Both the position numbers and the translations under genes were made by a program. The notes beneath the pieces are model-generated. The model had not been told where the DNA came from. It ran no database searches and was given only the letters and a program-made list of their open reading frames with translations. From Candidatus Acidiferrales bacterium (GTDB taxonomy: Bacteria; Acidobacteriota; Terriglobia; Acidiferrales; UBA7541), in the NCBI GenBank assembly GCA_035279445.1, contig DATEHV010000008.1:6525-70524 (forward strand): a DNA stretch of 64,000 nt, given 5' to 3'. Every line of letters starts with the position of its first letter. Position 1 is the first letter of the stretch. Shown in pieces: positions 3,078-30,095 of this stretch.

Positions 3078-4450
3078 CGGGCGCTGCGAGCGGGCGTCGC
3101 CGGATCCGCAAGGTCTTGCGCGTCCGCCGGAATGCGAATGTCGTGCCACTCGTTCACCGGATGGCGTCCGGGGATTCGCAGCTTCAGGTAATTTCCCGTC
3201 AGTGCTTCGGTCCAATCTTGCCCCCCACGGCCGAGCGTCAGCGCGCGCACGGCGCGCCCCGCCTGCGCCCTGCGGAACTCTTCGGACTTTCGCAGCCCGA
3301 GGGCCCGAAGACTCCGGGCCCGCTCGCGGATGGATTCCAGGCGAACGGCCCCGCCGAGATTCGCCGCTGCAGTTCCGGGGCGCGTCGAGAACGAAAACAC
3401 ATGCAGGTATGTGAACGGTTGTCGTTCGATGAATGCGAAGGTGGCGCGAAAATCTTCCTCCGTCTCGCCGGGAAAGCCCGCGATGACGTCCGCTCCGATC
3501 GCCGCGTCGGCCAGCGCGCGGCGGATGAGGCTCACGCGCTCGGCGTAGTGCTCGGAGCGGTACCAGCGGTGCATGGCGCGCAGGATTCGGTCGGAGCCCG
3601 ATTGCAGCGGCGCGTGAAAATGCGGCGCCAAGCGATCGGACGAGGCCACGAGCGCCACGAAATCTTCGGTGATGTCCTGCGGCTCGATTGAGCTGAAGCG
3701 AAGCTGCTCGAGTTCGGTCTCGTCGAGGATTCGCTGAACGACGCCGGCGAGTCCGGCGCGCGGGACGAGGTCGCGGCCATAGCTTCCGAGATTGATCCCG
3801 CTCAGGACGATTTCCCTCGCGCCCGCATCCACGAGCGTCCACACTTCGCGGATTACATCATCTGGAGGCAGGCTGCGGCTGCGCCCGCGCACGAAGGGAA
3901 TCACGCAGTAGGAGCAGCGATTGTTGCAGCCGTCCTGTATTTTCAGGATGGGCCGTGTGCGGTCGCCCGCCATCAGCGTCGCGGGCGCGATCTGTACTGC
4001 GGTTTGCGCGAAGATGTCGCCGGTCAGGATTCTCGCCGGGCCTCGTGCGAGCGACATCGCCGCGCCTTCGAGTTGCGCCAGCGGGAAGAAGTCGGCGCGC
4101 GCCGGCTGCGCCACAACCCCTTGAAGGATGTCGGGTATTTCCGCCTGGTGCGAATTCCCCACCACCCAGGCGACACCCTCCATCGCCGCAAGTTCCTCGG
4201 GCGCGCGCTGCGCGTAGCAGCCGGTGACAACGACGCACGCGCCGGGATTCGCGCGGTGAATTTTTCGTATGGCGTCGCGCGCCTGAGAATCCGCGGCAGC
4301 CGTCACGGTGCACGTGTTCAGCACGACGACGTCCGCGGACGCGTGACCCGCGGAGGGCGTCAGGCCCTTTTCGAGCAACGCGCTGCGAAGCGCGGCGGCG
4401 TCGGCCTCCGTAGCGCGGCAGCCAAAGTTCTCAATGGAAAATGTCGCCAT
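3074..4450 (-). CDS. mtaB: MiaB-like radical-SAM tRNA methylthiotransferase (MtaB type)
   Basis: 458 aa. N-terminal UPF0004 domain (FSIENFGCRATEAD), radical-SAM CNNRCSYCVIP, and a C-terminal TRAM-like region. The stop overlaps the acpS stop (convergent). Confidence 0.85.
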   Translation of the reverse strand: MATFSIENFGCRATEADAAALRSALLEKGLTPSAGHASADVVVLNTCTVTAAADSQARDAIRKIHRANPGACVVVTGCYAQRAPEELAAMEGVAWVVGNSHQAEIPDILQGVVAQPARADFFPLAQLEGAAMSLARGPARILTGDIFAQTAVQIAPATLMAGDRTRPILKIQDGCNNRCSYCVIPFVRGRSRSLPPDDVIREVWTLVDAGAREIVLSGINLGSYGRDLVPRAGLAGVVQRILDETELEQLRFSSIEPQDITEDFVALVASSDRLAPHFHAPLQSGSDRILRAMHRWYRSEHYAERVSLIRRALADAAIGADVIAGFPGETEEDFRATFAFIERQPFTYLHVFSFSTRPGTAAANLGGAVRLESIRERARSLRALGLRKSEEFRRAQAGRAVRALTLGRGGQDWTEALTGNYLKLRIPGRHPVNEWHDIRIPADAQDLADPATPARSAR

Positions 4451-4555
4451 GCGGTCGGGTGCGTTTCTGAAAACTTGAGGCAGGGATTATAGCAGCGAAT
4501 CGAGGCGGCTTCAGGACGTTACGCTGGGGTCGCGGTCGCTGCCGCGGACGGGGAG

Positions 4556-5233
4556 CTACTCTCCGGAGCCGCGCCGCTGGTAGCAGAGGAGAATCAAGTC
4601 CGCGCGGCGTCGCACGCCGAACTTTGCGAGAAGATTGGAAACGTGAAATTTTACGGTCCGCTCGGAAATATGCAGCCGGTCCGCCACTTCCTTGTTGGCC
4701 AGATTTTCCAGCAAGCCGCTGAGCACCTCTTGCTCCCGCCGGCTGAGTTCGTTCGGAGAATCCACGCGGAGGCGGCGTCCCTGCGTGCTGCTCAGGATGG
4801 AGTCCACAAAGCGGGACAAAACCGGGCGCGGAACCCAGATACCCCCGTTGGCCACCTGCGGCAGTGCGCGAGGGAGTTGTTGGCGGGCCTCGGCGTAGGT
4901 CAGGATACCTTTGGCGCCCTGGCGCAGCAGGGCGTAACTATCGGCCTCCTTGAGTTTGTCGCCAACGACCAGCAGCCGGGCGTTTGAGTAGCGTTCGAGA
5001 ATGTTTCCCAGCAGGGCTCCCGTGGCCTGGCGCGCCGCGTGAGCGTCGACGACATACACCGTCGCTTTCGGCACGTCGAGATTCCGCAAGTCCGGCGCCA
5101 ACATCGAATCGAGCTGTTTGCACGTAATCTGGAAGCCGGAATCTTCCAGCAAGCGATGGAATTCGTCCAAAACCATCGGATGCGGCGAAAGCAGGCAGAC
5201 CTTTAAATTAGACTTACCGTTCGACTTGGCCAT
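4556..5233 (-). CDS. LuxR-family transcriptional regulator with degenerate receiver-like N-domain
   Basis: C-terminal LuxR HTH (LSRREQEVLSGLLENLANKEVADRLHISERTVKFHVSNLLAKFGV). The N-terminal CheY-like fold lacks the acidic DD pair (LLSPHP instead) and the conserved Lys. Confidence 0.85.
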   Translation of the reverse strand: MAKSNGKSNLKVCLLSPHPMVLDEFHRLLEDSGFQITCKQLDSMLAPDLRNLDVPKATVYVVDAHAARQATGALLGNILERYSNARLLVVGDKLKEADSYALLRQGAKGILTYAEARQQLPRALPQVANGGIWVPRPVLSRFVDSILSSTQGRRLRVDSPNELSRREQEVLSGLLENLANKEVADRLHISERTVKFHVSNLLAKFGVRRRADLILLCYQRRGSGE

Positions 5234-5441
5234 TCTGAATTCAGGCTAGCCGAATTGATGGGCATGGGCAAGGAAGACGGAGCAGGCGATTTCATACCAG
5301 ACACGGGCATAAACGGCGTCAGGGGCGCCCAGAAGCCTGGCCTGAAAATTGGCGTGAGAGATTAGCGCGCGGCGTCGCGCACCGAGATACGCCGCCGCTG
5401 ATCCATGCTGAAACTGGCGAAACGCGAGGTTGCGGCAGAGA

Positions 5442-6518
5442 TCAGTCAGCCTGCGCCGGCGATTCGGTTGAAAGCTCGCCTTCCGCAACCGGCTTTCGTC
5501 TTGGGCGCTTCGCAGGCAGGCCCGCCTGACGGACCTTGTAAAGCAGTGCGCGATAGCTGATTTTCAGCACCTCGGCGGCCTTGCGACGGTTCCAGTGATT
5601 GGCCTGGAGCACCCTCAGGATTACGTCGCGCTCCGTCCGTCGTGTTACTTGCTGGGCGATGCGTTTGAGAGGAATGTTTCCGTCCGGCGTCGTCTCGTAC
5701 GTCAAATGGAAGGGCGCCTTTTCGGCGCGCTCGGCGTAGAACGCCTCCTCAGAACCCAGCACCACGTATCGCGCCATGCAGTTTTCCAGTTCGCGCACGT
5801 TGCCGGGCCAATCCCGTTGCTGCAGCAAATGGAGAGTCTCCCTCGAAACTGGGCTTGCCGCGCGTTGAAACCTCCGGTTGAATTGCTGGCCAAGGTATTC
5901 CACCAGATACGGAATGTCTTCGCGACGTTCTCGAAGCGACGGGAGAGTAATGGTGATCACGTTGATGCGATAGTAGAGGTCCGAGCGGAAGACTCCGTTA
6001 TCGATTTCGCGCTGGAGTTGCCGGTTCGTCGCGCAGATCACGCGCGCGTCCATGCGCCTTTCTTCATGGTCGCCGATGCGCGTGAAATGACCGTCCTGGA
6101 GCACGTGGAGCAGTTTCGCCTGCAGGTTCGCGTCGAGCTCGGCAATCTCATCCAGGAACAGCGTGCCGCCTTGGGCCAGCTCCATGCGGCCGGGTTTCGC
6201 GGCGTGGGCGCCCGTGAAAGCGCCCTTCTCAAAACCGAAGAGCTCGCTTTCGAGCAGTGTCCCCGGAATCGCCGGGCAGTTCACCTTCACGAATGGCCCC
6301 TCGCGCCATGGGGAACGGCTGTGAATGTAGCGCGCCAGGACTTCTTTTCCAGTTCCGCTTTCGCCGAGAATCAGGATGGGAACGTTCAATCCGGCCGCTC
6401 GCTCGACCTTGTGCCGCACGGTTCGCATTGCTGCGGAGGGGCCGAAAAAGATGTGCTCGGGCGGGAGCTCGTACGACTGTGACGCTATCTCGGGTTTCAG
6501 TGGGGCCGCGGAAGACAT
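5442..6518 (-). CDS. Sigma-54-dependent transcriptional activator (bacterial enhancer-binding protein) without receiver domain
   Basis: AAA+ sigma-54 interaction domain with Walker A GESGTGKE, a GAFTGA loop, DEIAEL Walker B and WPGNVRELEN, plus a C-terminal Fis-type HTH. Only ~30 aa precede the AAA+ core. Confidence 0.9.
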   Translation of the reverse strand: MSSAAPLKPEIASQSYELPPEHIFFGPSAAMRTVRHKVERAAGLNVPILILGESGTGKEVLARYIHSRSPWREGPFVKVNCPAIPGTLLESELFGFEKGAFTGAHAAKPGRMELAQGGTLFLDEIAELDANLQAKLLHVLQDGHFTRIGDHEERRMDARVICATNRQLQREIDNGVFRSDLYYRINVITITLPSLRERREDIPYLVEYLGQQFNRRFQRAASPVSRETLHLLQQRDWPGNVRELENCMARYVVLGSEEAFYAERAEKAPFHLTYETTPDGNIPLKRIAQQVTRRTERDVILRVLQANHWNRRKAAEVLKISYRALLYKVRQAGLPAKRPRRKPVAEGELSTESPAQAD

Positions 6519-6904
6519 TGAGATTATGGGTCAGGAACCGGCGCTGACAATTCTCCCCTCGATGGTATTGCACTCAGGACGCCAAACGCGCTTCTGTCCA
6601 CGCATGTATCGGCCCGGCTGTGGATTGCCCGGATTACTTGTAAGCCACTCATTGCATTAGGCTTGTCCAAAGTACGAGGACCACGACAGCCCACCCCGCA
6701 TGCCGAGCCCCCCACGCAAATCCAGTCAAGGCTCTGAAAACCCTTGGAACATAAGGGAAGGGGTGTTCCTAACGAGGGTCGAGGCGCGTTCCGGAGGGTA
6801 CCAAGCGCTCGGGCAGGCAATTACGAACGATCAGGGGATTCCGAGTTCGCGCTGTGCGGTACTGGAAGAGGCCTAAACTTCGCAGAATTCCCGCGCACTC
6901 GATT

Positions 6905-7243
6905 CTAGATGCGCGACCCTTCACCGCGAATGATGTCGTAGCGCTCGATCACCGCCGCGACGCCGATCGTTTCGTGATCATCGTCAGAGCGCTTGTCCAC
7001 GCGCACCACGCGACCATGTGCGCGAACGAAGACCTCTGCGCCGCGCGTGATTTCCGCCGGCAATGTCAGCGTGAAATCGACTTCGCTGCCGGGAATGAGA
7101 TCCTTCTCCACCGTGAAGTAAACTCCGCGCGTGGAAATGTCCCGCGTCTGGCCGGCGTGCAACTTGGGCTCTCGGTTGATGGGCATGCGGATATTCACCG
7201 GCAGGGACAGATCGTACCGGCGGGCCATACGGCGTTCGGTCAT
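6905..7243 (-). CDS. Stand-alone PilZ domain protein (c-di-GMP receptor type)
   Basis: 112 aa with an RRMARR (RxxxR) motif at the N-terminus and DISTRGV (DxSxxG). GGAG RBS upstream. Confidence 0.8.
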   Translation of the reverse strand: MTERRMARRYDLSLPVNIRMPINREPKLHAGQTRDISTRGVYFTVEKDLIPGSEVDFTLTLPAEITRGAEVFVRAHGRVVRVDKRSDDDHETIGVAAVIERYDIIRGEGSRI

Positions 7244-7300
7244 TCCTGCTGCTCCTTCAGTACTGGGTTGAAGTTCACAGCATCCCCCGCATACAGAATC

Positions 7301-7316
7301 AGCAATCTCTCTTCCA
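7301..7316 (-). promoter_or_regulatory. Candidate sigma-54 (-24/-12) promoter for the PilZ gene
   Basis: The minus strand reads TGGAAG-agaga-TTGCT. GG and GC have the canonical spacing (consensus TGGCAC-N5-TTGCW). The site lies ~58 nt upstream of the ATG at 7243, and two sigma-54 activators are encoded next door. Confidence 0.35.
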
Positions 7317-7781
7317 AACGCGACATCGCGTTCGGTTCTTGCCCCGCAGCTGCAGCGTTTGGCGGGCTCCCGCGCCTTTGCTCAAGGAAGGAGCACGCGC
7401 GGTGAGCAACCCCTTTGTAAACAACAGAGCTTTGTTTCTATCTCGGGTGGACGGCGATCACCACTCGGTTCACACGCGAAAGAGTTCCGCATGCGGCCTG
7501 TTTCGGACCGGAATACTAGACCATGGCAAAGGCAAATGGATAGTGCTATTTCGCGGCTTGTGCTCTAGATATGCAACTGTTTTCAGGGGTATAGGACTAC
7601 GCGCCGATCCACAACCCAGCCGCTATTTCTTGCGGAGTGCGCCGAGCCGCGCACGAAAGATTGTGACCTGCGGCGATATCGACAAAGTTAGAACCGGTTC
7701 GGTAGATCGGAACCGTTCCCCGAAGACTGGGACGCGCACTCGTGCTTCCGGCGCGCGCTGTTCACACCATCGCAGACAGTT

Positions 7782-9284
7782 TCAGGAACCGCGGACGCCC
7801 GGAGCTGCAGGAGTCTCTTCTGTCACGACTTCTCGTTTTGCCGCCGCGATTTTTGCTGCTTCCTTTGCCGCTGCCGAGCGCGAGCCTCGGCCGGAATCGA
7901 GATTGAACTGTCGCATCTTGTAGAGCAGCGCTTTGTAACTGATTCCCAGCATGTGAGCCGCGTCTTTTCGGCACCAGTTTGTTTTCTCCAGCGCGTCGGC
8001 GATCGCTTCCATTTCCGCTTCGTCCTTCAAGCCGCGCACGAGCGCCTTCAGCCCTTGTTCTTTGGGCGCCGGCGCTTCCTCGCGCGGAGAGACGCGCTGC
8101 TGCTGGCTGGTCATCTCCAGAAGTTCGCGGAAGCTGCCTTCGTCGTCTTCCAGAATTACATAGCGTTTGACGAAGTTCTCGAGTTCGCGCAGGTTGCCGG
8201 GCCACGAGTAGCGCACCGCGGCTTCGAGCAGGCTCTTCGAAGGATCGGGCGCCACCTTCTGGTACTTTTCGCTGTACTTGACCAGAAAGTGCCGAAACAA
8301 GAGCGGGATTTCCGTGGTGCGCTCCCGCAGTGGCGGGATGTGGAGCGAGAGTACGTTCAGCCGGTAATAGAGATCCTCGCGGAAGCGGCCCGTTCGCATC
8401 GCTTCCTTGACGTCCATATTCGTCGCGGCGAGTACGCGAACGTCCACGTTGACTACCGAGCGAGCGCCCAGGCGCGAATACTGGCCATCCTGTAACACGT
8501 GCAGGAGTTTTGCCTGCAGATGCGGGCTCATTTCCGCGATTTCATCCAGGAAGATGGTCCCCTTGTTGGCGAGCTCGAACTTGCCGGGCTTCGCCCGCAC
8601 GGCGCCCGTGAAAGCGCCCTGCTCGAATCCGAACAGCTCCGATTCCAGGAGTTCGCCCGGCAGTGCGGCGCAATTCACTTTGATGAAAGCCTGCTGGTTG
8701 CGTTTGGAACGGAGATGAACCATGCGCGCAACCACTTCCTTTCCGACGCCGCTTTCGCCGCTGATGAAAATGGGAACGTCGACCGGCGCAATCTGCAGGA
8801 TTTGCTGGCGAATCTTGAGCATCTGCGGGCTCGCGGCCAGAAACGAGATGTCCTCGGTCAGAGCCTCGCAATATTCCCGCAGCGCCTGATTTTCCGAGCG
8901 CAGTTGCTGCTTCTGCTGGCACTTCAGAAACGCGGCATCCAGCTCCGGCTTCTCAAACGGTTTGGTCAGGTAATCGAGCGCGCCCAGCCGAATCGCTTCG
9001 ACCACGGTGGTCACTTCGTTGGCGCACGAAAGCATGATCACGTTGAGCGAACGGTCCACCTGCATCAGCTGCCGCAGCGTCTCGAGCCCGTCCAGTTCGG
9101 GCATCAGCACGTCGAGAATGATGAAATCGGGCCGCTCTCCTTCGCCGACGCGCTGCAAAGCTTCCTTGCCGCTCGGCAGCGTTTCGACCTCGAATCCGTC
9201 CACTTCGAGCAACGTCCGGAGGTATTTCCGGATACTCGGCTCGTCGTCCACCACCATGATCTTCTCTTTAGCTTTCGTCGCCAT
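7782..9284 (-). CDS. NtrC-family sigma-54-dependent response regulator (REC + AAA+ + Fis HTH)
   Basis: 500 aa. Receiver domain (IMVVDDEPS...DFIILDVLMPELDG...LTKPF), AAA+ domain (GESGVGKE, GAFTGA, WPGNLRELEN) and a C-terminal HTH, followed by an Ala/Lys-rich tail. Confidence 0.9.
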   Translation of the reverse strand: MATKAKEKIMVVDDEPSIRKYLRTLLEVDGFEVETLPSGKEALQRVGEGERPDFIILDVLMPELDGLETLRQLMQVDRSLNVIMLSCANEVTTVVEAIRLGALDYLTKPFEKPELDAAFLKCQQKQQLRSENQALREYCEALTEDISFLAASPQMLKIRQQILQIAPVDVPIFISGESGVGKEVVARMVHLRSKRNQQAFIKVNCAALPGELLESELFGFEQGAFTGAVRAKPGKFELANKGTIFLDEIAEMSPHLQAKLLHVLQDGQYSRLGARSVVNVDVRVLAATNMDVKEAMRTGRFREDLYYRLNVLSLHIPPLRERTTEIPLLFRHFLVKYSEKYQKVAPDPSKSLLEAAVRYSWPGNLRELENFVKRYVILEDDEGSFRELLEMTSQQQRVSPREEAPAPKEQGLKALVRGLKDEAEMEAIADALEKTNWCRKDAAHMLGISYKALLYKMRQFNLDSGRGSRSAAAKEAAKIAAAKREVVTEETPAAPGVRGS

Positions 9285-9320
9285 CGTTTTTCCTGCGAAG
9301 CGAGATCTTCCCGCCTCGAT

Positions 9321-10538
9321 TTATTCGACGTAGATGGGCAGCAAGAAAGAGAATGAACTTCCGCGGCCCATTTCGCTGTCCACCCACACTTTGCCGCGAT
9401 GCGCCTGGATCAATCGTTTCGTAATCGCCAGCCCGAGACCCATGCCCGAAGACGAAGGATCCACCCGTACGAACTCCTCGAAAATCTCCTGGTGAAATTC
9501 CGCCGCGATCCCGGTGCCGGTATCGGTCACGGAAACCAGAACGCTGTTCGGACGTTCGCGCGCGCCGCGGCGCCGTTCCTGCGAAGGTGCCCCTTCAGCC
9601 AGCCGCCTCTCCCAGAAGTGCGGCTCGGCCACCAGCGTGACGCGTCCGCCCGCCGGTGTGTGCTTCAGCGCGTTATCGAGCAGGTTCACCATGCACTGCT
9701 GCACTTTCTGGTAATCGAACCGGAACAGCGGAAGATCCGGATTCACCTGAATCTCAAGATGCACGCCAGCGCGCTGGAATGCGTCATGCCAGCGCCCGGC
9801 CACGTCGTTCACACAGTCCCGCAGATCGTTTTCGTGCAACTGCAGCACCAGCTTGCCGCTCTCGAGCGCCGAATAGTTCAGGAACATGGAAACGAGCCGT
9901 ACCAGCCGGTCGCAGCTTTCCTTCGACTCCTGCAAGATATCCCTCTGCCGCTCGCTCACCTTTCCCAGCGATCCCGTAAGCAGGAGTTCGTAATACCCCT
10001 TCATTACCGCCAGAGGAGTTTTCAATTCGTGCGCCGCGGACGCCAGAAACACCGTCTTCTGACGGTTCGCTTCCTGCAGTCGCAAATAGGCGGCCAGGAG
10101 ATTGCGGTACGTCGTTTCTCGTTCCTGCATCAGCTCCTGAACGGTCTGGCGCATCGCAGCCTCGTCGCCGATCGGTCCGGCGGGAGTTGGTTCGAAAAAG
10201 ACGGCGAGCCAGTCCGGCTCCGGAAGCCAGCGAATTCGTGCGCGCGACTTGCCTTCGGCGGATTCGACCGAAAGATTGACCTCTTGCTCTCCCGCTTCCA
10301 ATTGGCTCAAGACTTCCCTGCGGTCGGCGCGGAGGAGGTCCTTGAACAGGTTGAGATCGCGCCGCGAGCTCAATCCGCGGGTGTTCAGAGCGTCCTGCGC
10401 GTGCAGATTCGTGAAGAGTACTTGTCCGCCGCGATCGGCCACGAGAAGCGGGCGGTCCACAGCGTCCAGCAGACTGGCGACGAGTTGAAAACTCGCCGGG
10501 CCGACCGTCTGCTTTTCCACAGTCACGCTTTTGGGCAA
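9321..10538 (-). CDS. Cytoplasmic sensor histidine kinase (PAS-like + HisKA + HATPase_c)
   Basis: 405 aa. H-box SAAHELKTPLAV, N-box LLDNALKHTP, G-boxes DTGTGI and GMGLGLAI. No obvious TM segments. 36 bp upstream of the NtrC-type RR on the same strand. Confidence 0.9.
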   Translation of the reverse strand: MPKSVTVEKQTVGPASFQLVASLLDAVDRPLLVADRGGQVLFTNLHAQDALNTRGLSSRRDLNLFKDLLRADRREVLSQLEAGEQEVNLSVESAEGKSRARIRWLPEPDWLAVFFEPTPAGPIGDEAAMRQTVQELMQERETTYRNLLAAYLRLQEANRQKTVFLASAAHELKTPLAVMKGYYELLLTGSLGKVSERQRDILQESKESCDRLVRLVSMFLNYSALESGKLVLQLHENDLRDCVNDVAGRWHDAFQRAGVHLEIQVNPDLPLFRFDYQKVQQCMVNLLDNALKHTPAGGRVTLVAEPHFWERRLAEGAPSQERRRGARERPNSVLVSVTDTGTGIAAEFHQEIFEEFVRVDPSSSGMGLGLAITKRLIQAHRGKVWVDSEMGRGSSFSFLLPIYVE

Positions 10539-10852
10539 CGCACTCTCCTGGCGGTTGAAACCCCAACAAACACACCACGCTCACACTTACCCTGGCGCTC
10601 GAGGGGAAACCTGTTGAGGAAGGGTATGCTCGCAAAGGGGCCAAAAAGAGTCAATGGTAAATGCGTCCTACATTTGCACAATCGCGGCAATCGTTTGCCG
10701 CTGCTTTTGTATATTCCCCTTCGAAGTGCTCCCGACCCCGCAACTCGGAACCCGCCATCGTATTGATAATGCAAGTGTTAAATAAAGTGCACGGTGGCGC
10801 AAGGACTTGCATTCAAATTGCGACTCAAAAGGGTACTACTACTTGGGTACCA

Positions 10853-11215
10853 ATGACCGTCAGAGAAAACGCCGTACATCAGAGGGTTGGCGTGCCGCAG
10901 CTGAGCGATGAGCGTCGCCGCTTTCAGCGTATCCATTTGCAGGTGCCGCTCTTCATTCGCGGTAGGGATGCGCAAGGCGATCAATTCATGGAGCTCGCGA
11001 AGACTTTGAACATTAGCGCTGTAGGGGCTTTTATAACGAGTCCGCGACCGCTGGCAGTCAACGGGTACGTCACGTTGACGATTCCCGCGCCGTCGATAAC
11101 CTCGTCCGGACTTGTGCCCGCGGGAATGGCGCCGATTCAGGCGCGAGTGAAACGCCAACAGGAAGCCGGCGATGTGCATTTGATCGGCGTTGAGTTCCTA
11201 AAACCCATCGGCTAA
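10853..11215 (+). CDS. Stand-alone PilZ domain protein
   Basis: RRRFQR (RxxxR) and NISAVGA (NxSxxG) motifs. ATG at 10853 chosen, because the track ORF start at 10661 lies in a non-coding-looking AT-richer leader. Confidence 0.72.
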   Translation: MTVRENAVHQRVGVPQLSDERRRFQRIHLQVPLFIRGRDAQGDQFMELAKTLNISAVGAFITSPRPLAVNGYVTLTIPAPSITSSGLVPAGMAPIQARVKRQQEAGDVHLIGVEFLKPIG

Positions 11216-11467
11216 CGATTTTCCGTTAATTTGAATCCCATCGGCAGTGCGTTGAGTCCAAAGTGGAATCACTTTTCACTTTCCGGCAAGCGCGCGGGTC
11301 CTCGCGCCGGCATTGTATACTGAGCGTTTATGCGTCTTGCTGGCAGCAACTTACGGCGGCCCTCGCCCCATTTCTTGTCTGGGATTGGACTGCCCCGTGC
11401 TGTAGACTAGCAGCCCCCGCATGCCTCCCTGAGTTCAGGGAGGGCTAGACTTACTCGGAACCCGTTC

Positions 11468-12655
11468 ATGCCCCAGCCCGGCGAAGCTATGCAACCGCAG
11501 CCCTCTGCGGAGGATTCGTTCTTGGACTTGCTGGTAGAGACCCTCGAGGGTCTCGACGAATCCGCTCGCGGGCAATTCCTGCGCCAGTTTCTCCGCACTG
11601 TGGCGCAGACGGATCTCACCGAGCTGCAAAGCAATGAATACTGGGCGCGCATTATCGAGCGGCGGCGCGAGCTCGCCGACAGCCTCGGAAAAAGAGTTTC
11701 GCTCAAAACGGCGATCGTCGATGTCCTTTCTTCAACGAATTTTCTTCGCGTTCCCATTCTCATCGAATATGACGAATTCAAGAAGCTGCAGATCAACGCG
11801 GCTACCGACGCGCTCACGGGTCTCTACAATCGCCGCCTCTTCGACGAGTATTGCGACAAGGAGCTGAACCGCGCGAAGCGCTATGGCCAGCAACTCGCCG
11901 TCGTCATCCTCGACCTGCACAAGCTCAAGGAAGTGAACGATCGGTACGGCCATCTGCAGGGCGACCAGGTTTTGCAAATTGCCGCCGCCACTCTGCGGAA
12001 AACCCTTCGCGCTTCGGATTTCGCTTTTCGCATCGGCGGTGACGAGTTTGCGGTGCTCTTGCCGCAGACCGATCCCGAGCAGGCCGTCACGCTTTGCCGC
12101 CGCGTCCGCTCTCAATACGAAGCGGAGCTCCGTCCGCTCAAACTCGATATCGGAGTGACTCTCGATTTCGGCGTGGCCGTGCATCCTCAGGACGGCGACC
12201 AGAAAAGCGATCTACTGGGCCTGGCGGACAAGAAACTCTACGAGCTGAAGCATGCGGGCCGCGCGTCGTCTCGCGTGATTCCGCTCGAACCGCCGCTGCG
12301 CGAGGCGCCCCCTCCTCTGCCTTCACTCCGAATCCCCACGGCCGCCCCTTCCGGGTCAGGCGCCGCTGCTGCCCCCGCCCTGCGCAGCGAGCAGCGGAAG
12401 TGGGAGCGCGTCTCGCTCGCCGGGACCAAGGCTCACGCCATTCTCACGGATGGCACCCAGAAAACCGCACGAGTGATCGACCTCAGTTATGGCGGTGTTG
12501 CCCTGCAATTTGAAAAAGGCGAAGACCTGCCCGCTCAGTTCAATGCCGTGCTGCACGTGCCCATTCTGCCTCCGGTGCGCGTGGTTCTTCGCAAAGCCTA
12601 TACGATGCGGACCGACGCTGGCCGCACGCGCGTCGGCTGCTCTTTCGTTTCGTAG
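11468..12655 (+). CDS. Diguanylate cyclase (GGDEF with I-site) fused to a C-terminal PilZ domain
   Basis: GLYNRRLF..., an RASD I-site 5 residues before the RIGGDEF active site, and a C-terminal PilZ with RKWER and DLSYGGV motifs separated by a Pro/Ala-rich linker. Confidence 0.9.
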   Translation: MPQPGEAMQPQPSAEDSFLDLLVETLEGLDESARGQFLRQFLRTVAQTDLTELQSNEYWARIIERRRELADSLGKRVSLKTAIVDVLSSTNFLRVPILIEYDEFKKLQINAATDALTGLYNRRLFDEYCDKELNRAKRYGQQLAVVILDLHKLKEVNDRYGHLQGDQVLQIAAATLRKTLRASDFAFRIGGDEFAVLLPQTDPEQAVTLCRRVRSQYEAELRPLKLDIGVTLDFGVAVHPQDGDQKSDLLGLADKKLYELKHAGRASSRVIPLEPPLREAPPPLPSLRIPTAAPSGSGAAAAPALRSEQRKWERVSLAGTKAHAILTDGTQKTARVIDLSYGGVALQFEKGEDLPAQFNAVLHVPILPPVRVVLRKAYTMRTDAGRTRVGCSFVS

Positions 12656-12774
12656 TCGGTGCGGGGACGCCTCTCCGGTCGCGCGCTGCGGGCCCTGCCC
12701 TTGCTGGAAAAATTTGCTGAGCCGGGTTACCATAGCACTTCCGTTCCGGCCCCCTCAGACTGATTGGACGTCCC

Positions 12775-13665
12775 ATGGCTCTCACATCTTTACCCACTCG
12801 TCTTCCCGTCCAAGGTGTCGGGCTGGAGGTATGGTTGGAACGCGTCCTCGAAAGAGCCGAGCGCGTCCAGCCGGCCTGGGACGCCGCCGACGTTCACGCC
12901 TTGCGCGTGGCGATCCGGCGCTGCCGGACGATGGCCGACGCGCTGAGTGAAGTGAATCCTGGCCCCGGCTGGCGCAAGCTGAAGAAATCCACCCGCGAGC
13001 TTTTTCGCGCTCTGGGCAAGCTCCGCGATACCCAGATGGAACGGGCCCTCGTGAAACGCCTCGGCCCCCCGGGCGACCCCCTGCGAAAACACATGCTGCG
13101 CCTGCTTTCCCGAGAGCAACAAAGATACCGGGAAAGCGCGGAGCAGGCGCTGATCCGGTTCGACCGCAAGGAGTGGAAAAAACTGTCGCGCAGGCTGGCA
13201 TCCAAGGCGCGATTCTTCCCTCTCGGCAGCGTCGTGTTTCAACGCCTGGCCCTTGCGAGATTGAACCGGGCGGCGGATTTGTATCGGAAGGCGCGGAAGC
13301 AGCGGAGCAGCGTCGCTTGGCACCGGCTGCGCGTCGGCCTGAAGCGCTTTCGCTACGTCGCCGAGAATTTCATGCCGCAGCGGTATGAGGCCTGGGCCGA
13401 CGACTTGAAGCGAATGCAGGACCTGTTGGGCGAAGTCCACGACCTCGACGTGCTGCGCGCCGACCTCCGCCGGCGCGTCACGGACGTGGACGCGGCGATC
13501 GTCGCGCAGTGGTTCGAAAGAATTGACCGAGAGCGAAAAGCACGCCTTCGGGAGTTCACCGAAAAATGCGCCGGCCCGGAATCCCCCTGGCTGACCTGGC
13601 GAGCCGGATTTCCTTGGGGCCCCGCCCTGGCGGCATCGTCGCTCGACGAGCGCCGAACCGCTTAG
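12775..13665 (+). CDS. CHAD domain protein (polyphosphate-granule associated family)
   Basis: 296 aa. Repeated basic helices VHALRVAIRRCR..., HRLRVGLKRFRYVAE, LGEVHDLDVL are typical of CHAD. Confidence 0.82.
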   Translation: MALTSLPTRLPVQGVGLEVWLERVLERAERVQPAWDAADVHALRVAIRRCRTMADALSEVNPGPGWRKLKKSTRELFRALGKLRDTQMERALVKRLGPPGDPLRKHMLRLLSREQQRYRESAEQALIRFDRKEWKKLSRRLASKARFFPLGSVVFQRLALARLNRAADLYRKARKQRSSVAWHRLRVGLKRFRYVAENFMPQRYEAWADDLKRMQDLLGEVHDLDVLRADLRRRVTDVDAAIVAQWFERIDRERKARLREFTEKCAGPESPWLTWRAGFPWGPALAASSLDERRTA

Positions 13666-27124: not shown

Positions 27125-27218
27125 CCGCCTTGTCGGGGTTGCTTGGTCAGCAACCTTGGTACATCGGTACCATTCCTCCCACCAATGGTTCTAGTACAAT
27201 CGATTGGAGAGCAAGGAG

Positions 27219-30095
27219 ATGCAGCCTCTCCAAGGTGAGTTGACCGTGGCCAGCGAGTCCATAGTCCCCAATGCACGGGCCTTCGTGCGGAGCCTCAACG
27301 TTCTCCTTAAGTACTCACGGCTCTATGGTTTAGACCACCTTCGCTCTGCCGGGCAGTTCGAAGTCAGCTGGAATGAGCTGGAGGAGGCCGTCCGCGCGGC
27401 CGGGGATGCCGGGCTGCTGCTGGGAGCCTCCGGTTCGCAGCTGCTCCTGGACGGCGTCCCGCTCGAGTCCACCACCGCCGAACGCAGCTTCGCCGACCTG
27501 CTCAACAATGCCGGCGTCGCCAGCATCGCATTTCTGCCGACAGTCGGCCGCGGAGACTTCGCCAATCTGGTGAAGGCGTTCATGGAGACGGGCCCGAAGG
27601 CTGCACCACTGGGCGAACGGCTGGAGAAATACTTCGGGACGGGAAACACCGCTGGAATTCGCGTCAACGAAATCCGCTTTGTCGCTGAAGACGCGGCCTT
27701 CTCCGAGGCGCGCGTCGCCGCGCAATTGACGGTGAAGACCCTGGGAGCCGATGCCGAACGCGTGCAGGATTGGTTCCGCAGTCCCGAGAAAATGATTCAG
27801 CTGATCGCCGCGGCGGAGGGCGCGCACGGAGGGCCGGGGGGACCCGGCACGGGGCCTGGCGGACTGGGACCTGGAGCGGGACCCGGAGCGGGACCGGGAC
27901 CCGGACAGGGAGGCGGAACAGGCACGGGTTCGGGGTCTGGTGGCGGTGGGGGAGGCAGCGGCACGGGTTCAGGGTCGGGTGGTGGATTCGCCGGCGCCGG
28001 AACTGGCGGCGGTGGCGTCGCAGGAGTCGGAATCGGAGCAGGCGGTTCGGGGTCAGCAGTAGGATTCCTGAGCGGCATGCAGGGTGGGGGCTCCGCCCAA
28101 GTTCCGCCGATGGGTGAGGCGGAAATGCAGAGTTTGTTGCGGCTGCTTGCGCAGTTTGGCGAAGCCACCCACGCCAAGTCCGTGCAAGTGACCGACCAGC
28201 TGGCCTGGACACAGAAGCTCGCCGCGCTGCCTCAAAATGCGCAGTGGACTCTGCGGCAGGCGCTGGCAACCGTGGCGGCGAAGACTCCCTCGGCAAAAGT
28301 GGACGAGACCATGCTGCTGCGGCTGGCCGAAGACCTGGCAATCCGCTTCGCGCTCGATCGCTTCCAGCGCGGCGAAGTGCGCGTCAACGCCGTGCGGCAG
28401 ATGCTCGACAAGATGGGCCACGAGCTGGAAACGCTGCGAAAGCTGCTGAAGGCACGCGAGGACAAGATGGCCACCGCGGGACTCGCGGTGGAATCTCACG
28501 CGGATGTGCTCGACCGCCAGTTCTGGGCCGCGGTGCCGGAATCGGGCAAGCGAGCGGTGCTCACCTCGGCGGAGGCGTGGTGCATCCCGCCGCGGAACGT
28601 GCAGCAATACGTCGAAGAGCTGCTCGGGCGCGGCGAAGCGGATGTCGCCGGAGACGTGCTGCTGAAATATGCGTCGTGCGTGCGAAACAAGGATGCGGAA
28701 GCGCGAAAGAAGGCCGCCATCGGGCTGGGCCAGCTCGCGGAGTTGTACAGCAAAGGAGCGAGCCAGCGATTGCAGGACGCACTCACCCAGATCGGGCAGC
28801 AACTGGCCGCCGAAAAGGACGCGGAGCTACAGACTTTGTTGAGCGCGGCTTTCGTGCGATTGAGCCAGGAAGCGGCTTCGCGGCGCTACTACCGCGCGAT
28901 GCAGCAAGCGCTCGATTCGATCACCGACCTCGAGGAACTCCGCCCGGCGTGGGCGCAAAGCCTGCGTCCACGGCTGGGAGTTGAAAACCGAATTTCTGAA
29001 TTCATCGAAGAGGCGCTGACGGCCGAGGCGATGCCGGAAGGCCTGGTGGGCTTGCTGATGCGCGTTCCGCAAGGGGCGGCGGAGCAACTCGCGGTGCGGC
29101 TGGCGCGTTCGGGGCGGCGCAGCGAGCGGGAGGCCGTGGTCCAGCTGGCAAAAGAGGTGGGAAGCGCCTGCGCCAGGCATTTGAAGGAAATCCTCAAGTC
29201 GGAGGCGCCTGCCAAAGCGGCGACGGTCGTGGGGCTGCTGAGCCGCGTGGACGTGCAGGCCGTGGAGGATCTGCTGCCCGTGCGACTGCGGAACGGCGGG
29301 CGCGGCTTCCACGATGCGGCCGTGCGCCAGCTCTCGATCGCGGGAGCGCCGGAACGCGGCCAGCTGCTCGCGGACTCGATCGAAATGCTGGACCCGATGG
29401 TCTTGCCGCTGGCGCTCGATGAAATCGGAATGTGCGCGGACCAGAAGACCGCGACGATGCTTCTCCGATTGGCGGAAGGAGAGATCCTGCCGGACGGCGC
29501 CGAGTACCTGCGCGTCAAGGCGATCGAAGCGCTGGGTCGGATGCGCGCATTGGCCGCCGCGGGACATCTGCGGCGTTTTGTGGAAGCGCGAAAGGCATTC
29601 GGCTGGGCCTATCCGGAGGAGATGCGCATGGCGGCGGCGCAGGCTTTGATGAAGCTCGATCCGGAATGGATGGAGGCGTTTCTGTCCCACTCGGGCCTGG
29701 ATCAGAGAGTGATGGCGCTCGCTCCGCTGGACCCGATACCCGACCGCGACGTCGTGCGGCATCGGCGGTATCGCAGAATTCGGCTGCCGCGGAATGTGCC
29801 CGCCGTGATTACGTCGGCGCGCGGAAAGTATTCATCGGCGATCAGCGTACTGAGTCTCGAGGGCGGGCTGTTGAGCGGCGACATCCAACTCGCCGTGGGA
29901 ACGGAAGCGACGTTGAAGATTCCTGCGGGGCTTCGCTCGATCAACATGCAGGCCGTGGTGCGATTCGTTCGATCACACCAGGCGGGCTTCGAAATGGTGG
30001 GTATGGGGCTCGACGACCGCACAAAGCTTCGCCGGCTGCTCGTATCGCTGGGCAGTCCCGACCCCACGACCAGTCAACCTCAACCAAGCGAATAA
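27219..30095 (+). CDS. Large HEAT-like repeat protein with internal Gly-rich disordered region and C-terminal PilZ-like domain
   Basis: ~958 aa. Gly-rich tract GPGGPGTGPGGLGPGAGPGAG...GSGSGGGG at ~27819-28091. HEAT/PBS-lyase-like repeats (LRVKAIEALGRMRALAAAGHL). C-terminal RRYRR ... LSLEGG PilZ-type motifs. ATG at 27219 has a GGAGA 8 nt upstream; TTG at 27204 is also possible. Confidence 0.8.
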   Translation: MQPLQGELTVASESIVPNARAFVRSLNVLLKYSRLYGLDHLRSAGQFEVSWNELEEAVRAAGDAGLLLGASGSQLLLDGVPLESTTAERSFADLLNNAGVASIAFLPTVGRGDFANLVKAFMETGPKAAPLGERLEKYFGTGNTAGIRVNEIRFVAEDAAFSEARVAAQLTVKTLGADAERVQDWFRSPEKMIQLIAAAEGAHGGPGGPGTGPGGLGPGAGPGAGPGPGQGGGTGTGSGSGGGGGGSGTGSGSGGGFAGAGTGGGGVAGVGIGAGGSGSAVGFLSGMQGGGSAQVPPMGEAEMQSLLRLLAQFGEATHAKSVQVTDQLAWTQKLAALPQNAQWTLRQALATVAAKTPSAKVDETMLLRLAEDLAIRFALDRFQRGEVRVNAVRQMLDKMGHELETLRKLLKAREDKMATAGLAVESHADVLDRQFWAAVPESGKRAVLTSAEAWCIPPRNVQQYVEELLGRGEADVAGDVLLKYASCVRNKDAEARKKAAIGLGQLAELYSKGASQRLQDALTQIGQQLAAEKDAELQTLLSAAFVRLSQEAASRRYYRAMQQALDSITDLEELRPAWAQSLRPRLGVENRISEFIEEALTAEAMPEGLVGLLMRVPQGAAEQLAVRLARSGRRSEREAVVQLAKEVGSACARHLKEILKSEAPAKAATVVGLLSRVDVQAVEDLLPVRLRNGGRGFHDAAVRQLSIAGAPERGQLLADSIEMLDPMVLPLALDEIGMCADQKTATMLLRLAEGEILPDGAEYLRVKAIEALGRMRALAAAGHLRRFVEARKAFGWAYPEEMRMAAAQALMKLDPEWMEAFLSHSGLDQRVMALAPLDPIPDRDVVRHRRYRRIRLPRNVPAVITSARGKYSSAISVLSLEGGLLSGDIQLAVGTEATLKIPAGLRSINMQAVVRFVRSHQAGFEMVGMGLDDRTKLRRLLVSLGSPDPTTSQPQPSE

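Follow-up and report, generated by a model that had tools for sequence, protein, structure and literature searches.

Several described systems resemble parts of the locus analyzed here. In PspF/PspA of Escherichia coli and HrpR-HrpS/HrpV of Pseudomonas syringae, sigma-54 activators that are free of a regulatory domain are controlled by a separate protein. FleQ, FlrA, VpsR and BerB are sigma-54-type activators that bind cyclic di-GMP (c-di-GMP) directly, and MapZ-CheR1, HapZ-SagS and TssZ-HinK of Pseudomonas aeruginosa are pairs of a PilZ adaptor and its partner. The c-di-GMP circuit of Vibrio cholerae includes VpsT, a regulator of LuxR/CsgD type whose receiver is atypical, alongside the activator-type regulator VpsR. 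In the flagellar sigma-54 cascades (FleQ to FleSR; FlrA to FlrBC) an activator gene is placed under the control of another activator. The subject of this report is a block of seven signaling genes at positions 4556-12655 of a 64,000-nucleotide (nt) stretch of DNA, hereafter the window, from Candidatus Acidiferrales bacterium. At its core is a four-gene module that encodes a histidine kinase, an NtrC-type response regulator, a stand-alone PilZ protein (PilZb) and a sensor-less sigma-54 activator (EBP2). The module is undescribed in the literature searched and is built from known kinds of parts. The domains, the promoters and the conserved linkage are features of the locus itself, and the interpretation that we favor, and regard as reasonably probable, is that the whole island works as a single regulatory unit, a sigma-54 cascade of two tiers that yields c-di-GMP signaling proteins.

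The genome that contains the window is a 3.5-Mb assembly of 46 contigs. Coordinates are given in window numbering, and the genes were checked with an open reading frame listing and Pfam. The run of seven consecutive signaling genes listed in the earlier note is present, and the Pfam search backs the domains:

4556-5233, minus strand: LuxR/GerE-type regulator (Pfam GerE, 67 bits)
5442-6518, minus strand: EBP2 (Pfam Sigma54_activat, 227 bits; AAA_lid_14; HTH_8)
6905-7243, minus strand: PilZa, 112 amino acids (aa) (Pfam PilZ, 37.8 bits; motifs RRMAR and DISTRG)
7782-9284, minus strand: NtrC-type response regulator (Pfam Response_reg, Sigma54_activat and HTH_8)
9321-10538, minus strand: histidine kinase, soluble (Pfam HisKA and HATPase_c)
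10853-11215, plus strand: PilZb, 120 aa, in an open frame that extends from 10661 (Pfam PilZ, 36.2 bits; motifs RRFQR and NISAVG)
11468-12655, plus strand: cyclase (Pfam GGDEF, PF00990, 153.5 bits; C-terminal PilZ-like domain)

The gene order was compared in the window and 18 genomes of the same genus (19 genomes in total), with 19-kb regions fetched for the 18. All 18 exhibit the same order: an MtaB-like gene, LuxR, EBP2, PilZa, the NtrC-type regulator and the kinase, followed divergently by PilZb and the cyclase. Only the flank on the cyclase side varies; its CHAD/SixA/Ppx genes are retained in only five genus genomes, and thus the block ends at the cyclase gene. The four-gene core of kinase, NtrC-type regulator, PilZb and EBP2 was found in approximately 22 of 28 distant loci, from families f3, f5, f7, f11, f12 and f13, in three arrangements. 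Arrangement A reads regulator < kinase < > PilZb > EBP2, arrangement B reads PilZb < > kinase > regulator > EBP2, and arrangement C is the order of the window's family. A scan of species genomes with an alignment of the PilZb family yielded 493 loci. The best 80 of these, each from a different species and all from Terriglobia metagenome-assembled genomes, were inspected, and 78 of them possess arrangement A, in which pilZb immediately precedes ebp2 in the same orientation. Orthologues of EBP2 (E<=1e-100) occur in 103 of 301 sampled genomes of the class, representing 46 of 131 genera, and in all 24 same-genus genomes searched, where identity is 70-83%.

The synteny in relatives to which the earlier note had looked is thus borne out, and its persistence throughout the genus, together with the class-wide occurrence of the core, indicates that the genes form one conserved functional unit. 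The ancestral module comprises the sensor-less kinase, the NtrC-type regulator, PilZb and EBP2. Later additions in this family are the LuxR-type regulator, PilZa, the cyclase, the PAS-like N-terminus of the kinase and, in relatives, a protein with a pair of CBS domains; PilZa is a paralogue specific to this family and PilZb is the ancestral PilZ of the module. Acidobacteriota are rich in signaling genes, and this genome has clusters of PilZ genes in other places too, so that a chance juxtaposition of abundant signaling genes has to be considered. Yet with the order identical in 18 of 18 genomes, the core found in at least seven families and in 78 of the 80 species loci, and one promoter type common to the genes (see below), we regard such a coincidence as extremely improbable.

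The density of the island points in the same direction. The genome has 20 PilZ matches, one per ~175 kb, and its true sigma-54 activators number 13. The island alone packs two activators, a pair of PilZ genes and a fused PilZ domain into 8 kb, a local density far above average. The gene for sigma-54 itself, rpoN, is present in a single copy.

As judged by their motifs, the catalytic and ligand-binding sites of the encoded proteins are all intact. The NtrC-type regulator has the canonical phospho-acceptor pocket expected of a phosphorylatable receiver, with VVDDEP, ILDVLMP, MLSC and LTKPF (DD, D58, S and K) invariant in the genus, and its activator domain (Sigma54_activat, ~226 bits) retains GAFTGA and the Walker A and B motifs. 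The kinase gene lies 36 nt upstream of the regulator gene. The kinase H-box, AAHELKTP, is invariant in the 19 genus genomes, and the N-terminus of the window's kinase comprises a weak PAS-like domain by Pfam. Orthologues from the other families (arrangement A) are approximately 310 aa long and consist of HisKA and HATPase_c with no sensor domain; in these families (for example L157:6690-7634, and the 79 type-A loci L077-L156) the kinase gene has a 4-nt overlap with the regulator gene. The regulator falls below the named NCBIfam equivalog cut-offs (AtoC, 436 versus 714 bits; NtrC, 373 versus 559 bits; PrsR, 368 versus 503 bits), with ZraR among those it does not reach, and EBP2 is likewise below that of PspF (264.5 versus 443.55 bits). 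No protein reaches an equivalog cut-off, and therefore none is to be equated with the named AtoC, NtrC, PrsR or PspF.

EBP2 is composed of an AAA+ domain and a helix-turn-helix alone. Only about 25 residues precede the AAA+ core, and a receiver or sensor domain is absent. GAFTGA, GESGxGKE and FLDEI are conserved and HTH_8 is at the C-terminus, as in bacterial enhancer-binding proteins. All orthologous frames are ~350-400 aa long, and those in arrangement A are ~355 aa. The public gene call for EBP2 is 328 aa (92% coverage) compared with the 358-aa open frame, the callers having taken a later start; in alignments of the orthologues conservation sets in around residue 12-18. Paralogues of EBP2 that carry an N-terminal extension of ~100-130 residues of unknown type (L071:4989-6374 and L072:4944-6239) adjoin genes for a polysaccharide priming sugar transferase and a Wza-like export protein.

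PilZa and PilZb both exceed the Pfam PilZ (PF07238) gathering cut-off of 22.5 bits, and the RxxxR and [D/N]xSxxG motifs are kept in all orthologues of both in the family alignment. The PilZb family comprises at least 4774 protein clusters in a large metagenomic protein collection, none of which bears a functional name. Since the ancestral kinase of ~310 aa has no sensor and EBP2 is only ~355 aa long, the PilZ protein is the only recognizable ligand-binding part of the ancestral module. In 13 of the 79 type-A loci EBP2 is followed by another PilZ-containing protein, ~250 aa long, with an N-terminus resembling a receiver and the PilZ domain (59 bits) at the C-terminus; in locus L080 it lies ~600 nt downstream of EBP2.

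The cyclase has an uncharacterized helical N-terminus and the sequence features of a diguanylate cyclase, an intact GGDEF and an I-site. The RxxD I-site is located five residues before GGDEF, and the segment reads RASD-FAFRI-GGDEF in 18 of the 19 genus genomes, with GGDEL in the remaining one. The C-terminal PilZ domain scores below the Pfam cut-off (17.2 versus 22.5 bits); its motifs, RKWER and DLSYGG, are present and conserved in the genus.

The regulatory regions were examined by phylogenetic footprinting, in which each intergenic region was aligned for the window and the 18 genus genomes. To be taken as a sigma-54 promoter, a site had to have GG and GC separated by exactly 10 nt and to keep its position ahead of the gene. 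The following elements were identified:

6568-6586, minus strand: predicted sigma-54 promoter of ebp2, TTTGGCGTCCTGAGTGCAA, ~66 nt before the ATG
7300-7318, minus strand: predicted sigma-54 promoter of pilZa, TTTGGAAGAGAGATTGCTG, 58 nt before the ATG
11384-11402, plus strand: predicted sigma-54 promoter of the cyclase gene, ATTGGACTGCCCCGTGCTG, ~66 nt before the ATG
10806-10822, plus strand: pilZb upstream element, CTTGCATTCAAATTGCG (TTGCAT-N5-TTGCG), 46 nt before the ATG, conserved in the genus
10626-10654, minus strand: sigma-70-like promoter candidate of the kinase-regulator operon, TTGACT-N17-GAGCAT, conserved
6756-6769, no strand assigned: dyad GGAA-N6-TTCC, ~180-184 nt upstream of the ebp2 promoter, candidate activator-binding site
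7510-7577, minus strand: conserved blocks GTTGCATA..TAG.GCAC and T.GTCTAGTATT.C, candidate upstream activator sites

The intergenic alignments are poorly conserved overall, with mean column identities of 52-67% and only 10-22% of columns at >=90%. Against this background GG-N10-GC stands at a fixed distance before pilZa, ebp2 and the cyclase gene in 19 of 19 genus genomes each. The ebp2 promoter, with consensus TTTGGCG-N6-GTGCA, is present in all 19 genus loci and in 26 of 28 distant loci, and its core columns are 100% conserved versus 52% for the region. The pilZa promoter, TTTGGAA-N5-GATTGCT, is matched by the strict pattern in 18 of the 19 genus loci, the nineteenth having ATCGCT, and also in six other genera of the family; the core columns are 99% conserved versus 59% for the region. 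For the cyclase gene the consensus is ATTGGACT-N5-(G/T)TGCT, in 19 of 19 loci, with TTGCT in most relatives, and 100% conservation of the core versus 67% for the region.

In this genus the element upstream of pilZb resembles a sigma-54 promoter in which the -24 GG has become TG, so that GG-N10-GC is not present. At the homologous position in other families there is a canonical TTTGGCAC-N5-(G/A)TGC, and the consensus in arrangement A is TTTGGCcCC.aAg.TGCT. The TGGCGC site at 10795 that the earlier note had read as a -24/-12 promoter of pilZb is off by one base in its spacing and is not conserved, and the conserved element is instead that at 10806-10822. A further element, AGTACTAA.ACT.G.GTAC at 10833-10851 on the plus strand, immediately precedes the pilZb start in 18 of the 19 genus genomes and may be a 5'-untranslated region element or an operator. 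None of the genomes compared has a -24/-12 site before the kinase operon. The dyad upstream of ebp2 is found at the same position in 18 of the 19 genus genomes with a variable spacer sequence, and the blocks at 7510-7577 precede the pilZa promoter by 190-260 nt. The palindromes (GAACC/GGTTC) at 7691-7719, a separate observation by the author of the earlier note, are not conserved in the genus alignments.

The conserved -24/-12 promoters before pilZa and, ancestrally, before pilZb argue that the small PilZ proteins are regulated outputs, one of the two roles that the earlier note had offered for them. Its larger proposal, a circuit of RpoN and c-di-GMP that might be closed, holds in part: the genes are one conserved unit, and sigma-54-type promoters precede pilZa, ebp2, the cyclase gene and, ancestrally, pilZb. 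The order of the tiers, which protein activates which gene and the binding targets of the PilZ proteins are what we infer beyond this. In the cascade that we favor, the kinase-regulator operon would be made from its sigma-70-like promoter, without a -24/-12 site. The kinase would phosphorylate the NtrC-type regulator, which together with RpoN would switch on pilZb, pilZa, ebp2 and the cyclase gene. The cyclase would raise c-di-GMP, limited by its own I-site and PilZ domain. The small PilZ proteins would be c-di-GMP-binding adaptors whose partner is another protein of the module. EBP2 would serve as the second-tier activator, controlled by its amount and probably also by a trans-acting partner, and would carry the signal to a regulon elsewhere in the genome. 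As in the flagellar cascades, an activator gene, here ebp2, has its own predicted sigma-54 promoter; unlike in those cascades, flagellar genes are absent here and the tier order is our conjecture.

Several results weigh against this cascade. Given the TG in place of the near-invariant GG, the pilZb element of this genus may no longer be a sigma-54 promoter. An upstream activator motif common to the four promoters was not found. A consensus sigma-54 scan of the whole window gave no enrichment of sites; it missed three of the real conserved sites because these score 8 of 12. When a position-weight matrix derived from 158 promoter instances was run over the genome, it gave 14 matches versus 18 in the reversed-sequence control, and since it performed no better than the control no regulon is definable. 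The best 150 PilZb relatives include no PilZ-activator fusion, all being stand-alone or multi-PilZ proteins. Lastly, exosortase, an output suggested by other families as described below, is absent from the window's genome. When the genome was scanned for the dyad combined with the promoter, the ebp2 site and one other place were returned versus one in the control, and the other place has no convincing gene downstream.

The conserved linkage suggests a partnership between PilZ and an activator, and no partnership of PilZ with a sigma-54 activator is described in the papers searched. A sharper form of the favored cascade, modeled on PspA-PspF and HrpV-HrpS, is that the stand-alone PilZ protein would act as the missing regulatory domain of EBP2 in trans, with c-di-GMP-bound PilZ docking on the AAA+ ring to switch it on or off. 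EBP2 is without a regulatory domain anywhere in the class, and pilZb is directly upstream of ebp2 on the same strand in 78 of 80 loci. Within this family ebp2 is immediately preceded by the gene for either PilZa or the CBS-pair protein, and a fusion of a CBS pair to an activator is found in PrdR. The CBS-pair protein, of 144 aa, is encoded between pilZa and ebp2 in 11 of the 18 genus genomes (for example L036:6420-6854), as well as in further genera of the family, and is 80-95% identical among relatives. Its sequence matches the CBS portion at the N-terminus of PrdR, in which such a pair is joined to a sigma-54 activator. The CBS-pair gene is absent from 6519-6904 of the window and was lost in the window's subclade. 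Two observations disfavor the docking of PilZ on EBP2, the lack of PilZ-activator fusions noted above and the retention of pilZb beside the kinase operon in arrangements B and C, where ebp2 has moved. The latter means that the kinase operon, and not ebp2, is the invariant neighbor of pilZb. We consider direct control of EBP2 by PilZ possible but somewhat doubtful.

The likeness of EBP2 to PspF and HrpS lies in its composition, AAA+ and helix-turn-helix only, with GAFTGA, and in the small protein encoded alongside. The neighbor of EBP2, however, is a PilZ protein (a CBS pair in relatives) rather than PspA or HrpV, and ebp2 itself has a sigma-54-type promoter, predicted to be under a two-component system. 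With FleQ, FlrA, VpsR and BerB the module shares what appears to be a link between c-di-GMP and transcription by sigma-54 activators. The FleQ-type c-di-GMP motifs are an LFRS arginine switch and, after the Walker A motif, KExxxRN (PMC7288161). At these positions, matched by eye, EBP2 instead reads HIFFGPS and KEVLARY and the NtrC-type regulator DISFLAA and KEVVARM, so that neither carries the FleQ-type motifs. The c-di-GMP receptor here would be a separate PilZ protein.

The position of pilZb bears on a second alternative, in which the PilZ proteins would feed c-di-GMP back on the kinase or the NtrC-type regulator, and EBP2 would be a second-tier activator under transcriptional control. pilZb and the kinase operon run divergently in every arrangement seen, and the ancestral kinase, being devoid of a sensor domain, needs input from elsewhere. 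Single-domain PilZ adaptors are documented, HapZ-SagS (PMC12564702, PMC10912698) and TssZ-HinK (PMC10912698), and the former is a precedent for an adaptor of a kinase. The shared intergenic region may, on the other hand, merely hold regulator sites for the pilZb promoter, and we regard feedback on the kinase or its regulator as rather unlikely. PilZa and PilZb resemble the known adaptors in their size (112-120 aa) and in the canonical RxxxR and D/NxSxxG. A histidine kinase and a LuxR-family regulator are among the known partners of this class, and the island encodes a protein of each kind. The genes differ from those of the adaptors in being sigma-54-dependent, as predicted, and genomically fixed to regulators.

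A third possibility is that the PilZ proteins and the cyclase are plain outputs, acting without feedback on machinery elsewhere in the cell such as polysaccharide synthases or motility proteins. The sigma-54 promoters mark these genes as targets, most characterized PilZ proteins act on enzymes or motors (PMC12564702, PMC10519070), and polysaccharide and exosortase genes occur near the module in other families. A tetratricopeptide repeat protein of PrsT type, scoring above the equivalog cut-off, follows EBP2 in 31 of the 79 type-A loci, a family-2 glycosyltransferase is found in 13, and one type-A locus continues with EpsI and an exosortase. A PEP-CTERM gene, noticed behind EBP2 in one locus, was considered as a conserved neighbor of EBP2 and rejected, as it occurs in only 4 of 79 loci overall. 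The neighbors in the other families suggest control of surface polysaccharide or exosortase functions. Exosortase is present in 14 of the 18 genus relatives, not adjacent to the module, and since the window's genome has none, the link to surface polysaccharide does not hold here. Nothing in the window points to a structural target. Across the loci a structural target is never a conserved neighbor (PEP-CTERM gene, 4/79; PrsT, 31/79), whereas the linkage of PilZ with regulators is near-invariant. That the PilZ proteins and the cyclase do no more than act on distant machinery is possible, although we do not consider it probable.

The PrsK/PrsR/PrsT set is comparable in that the module also has a sigma-54-type two-component pair, with PrsT adjoining it in 31 of 79 loci of another family. 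The module kinase, however, is small and soluble, unlike PrsK, the regulator is below the PrsR cut-off, and the co-occurrence with exosortase and PEP-CTERM that goes with the set is not seen in the window's genome.

The LuxR-type regulator offers a further candidate partner. Its N-terminus is not recognized by the Pfam Response_reg model; full-length alignments to NarL-family regulators (ChrA, EvgA and RcsB in the PDB; NCBIfam NarP, residues 9-222) show the receiver fold. The acidic pair is replaced by LLSPHP, invariant in the 19 genus genomes, and in place of the residues of a phosphorylatable receiver there are SP for DD and G for T/S, and the Lys is absent. The receiver is thus, by its residues, degenerate and probably non-phosphorylatable, in agreement with the pseudo-receiver assignment of the earlier note. 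A W-V-[P/S/A]-R motif is located at residues 133-136. W133 and R136 are invariant in the 19 genus genomes, the second position is always V, and the third is P, S or A, giving WVSR in 2 of 19. The c-di-GMP motif of VpsT is W[F/L/M][T/S]R with an upstream Lys (PMC7288161). R122, 11 positions upstream of W133, corresponds to K120 of VpsT. The window reads WVPR, which departs from the VpsT-type motif, and only two of the four positions match in 17 of the 19 genomes. The alignment with VpsT (E=1.7e-6) is mostly over the helix-turn-helix, and a PDB search with the linker fragment alone returned nothing useful.

These observations bear on the proposal that a PilZ protein partners the LuxR-type regulator, as TssZ does the LasR-type regulator HinK, or that the LuxR-type protein itself binds c-di-GMP, as VpsT does. 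Binding of a PilZ adaptor to a LuxR-family regulator is documented (PMC10912698), and the invariant W and R at the VpsT motif position with a basic residue 11 upstream speak in favor of the proposal. The regulator, however, occurs only in this family and the ancestral module lacks it, and the VpsT motif is incompletely matched as described above. We consider either form improbable. The locus resembles VpsT/VpsR in combining an atypical-receiver LuxR-type regulator with an activator-type regulator and differs in its WVPR motif, in the lack of a close sequence relationship and in the position of the LuxR-type regulator outside the conserved core.

A -24/-12 site precedes the LuxR gene in none of the genomes compared. 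Footprinting of the 19 genomes gave a candidate of another type:

5243-5271, minus strand: sigma-70-like promoter candidate of the LuxR gene, TTGCCC-N17-TAGCCT

The upstream region at 5243-5307 (minus strand) contains as conserved blocks CCCGTnTCTGGTATGAAAT and this TTGCCC-N17-TAGCCT. The -10-like hexamer is unusual, and with only ~10-15 nt between it and the ATG the leader would be very short.

Elsewhere in the window the count of the earlier note, three of four PilZ domains inside the block, was found to be correct. The fourth belongs to a 963-aa protein at 27204-30095 (plus strand), in which a C-terminal PilZ (31 bits) is the sole recognizable domain and the N-terminal 850 residues have no Pfam match. 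The G+C content of 5000-12000 is 0.58-0.60 versus 0.62-0.66 in the flanks, though the island is ancient and syntenic; the lower value is probably caused by the long regulatory intergenic regions. An Rfam search of 4300-13000 matched no RNA family, c-di-GMP riboswitches included.

The Terriglobia rank among the most abundant bacteria in soil, and there has been almost no study of their regulation. The four-gene module, found in hundreds of their species genomes, links sigma-54 activators and c-di-GMP, the best-known pair of systems for switching lifestyle, by a route so far undescribed. The presumed receptor is here a separate small protein whose gene stays linked to those of a kinase and an activator that both lack a sensor. 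The mapped promoters supply concrete hypotheses, and reconstitution in E. coli is possible without growing the uncultured host. We suggest tentatively, as a possibility short of a probable one, that a detached PilZ protein, itself made from a sigma-54 promoter, may be the trans input of the sensor-less activator or of the sensor-less kinase. If true, control by a detached PilZ would constitute a self-reinforcing switch and an undescribed mode of c-di-GMP action in hundreds of Terriglobia species.

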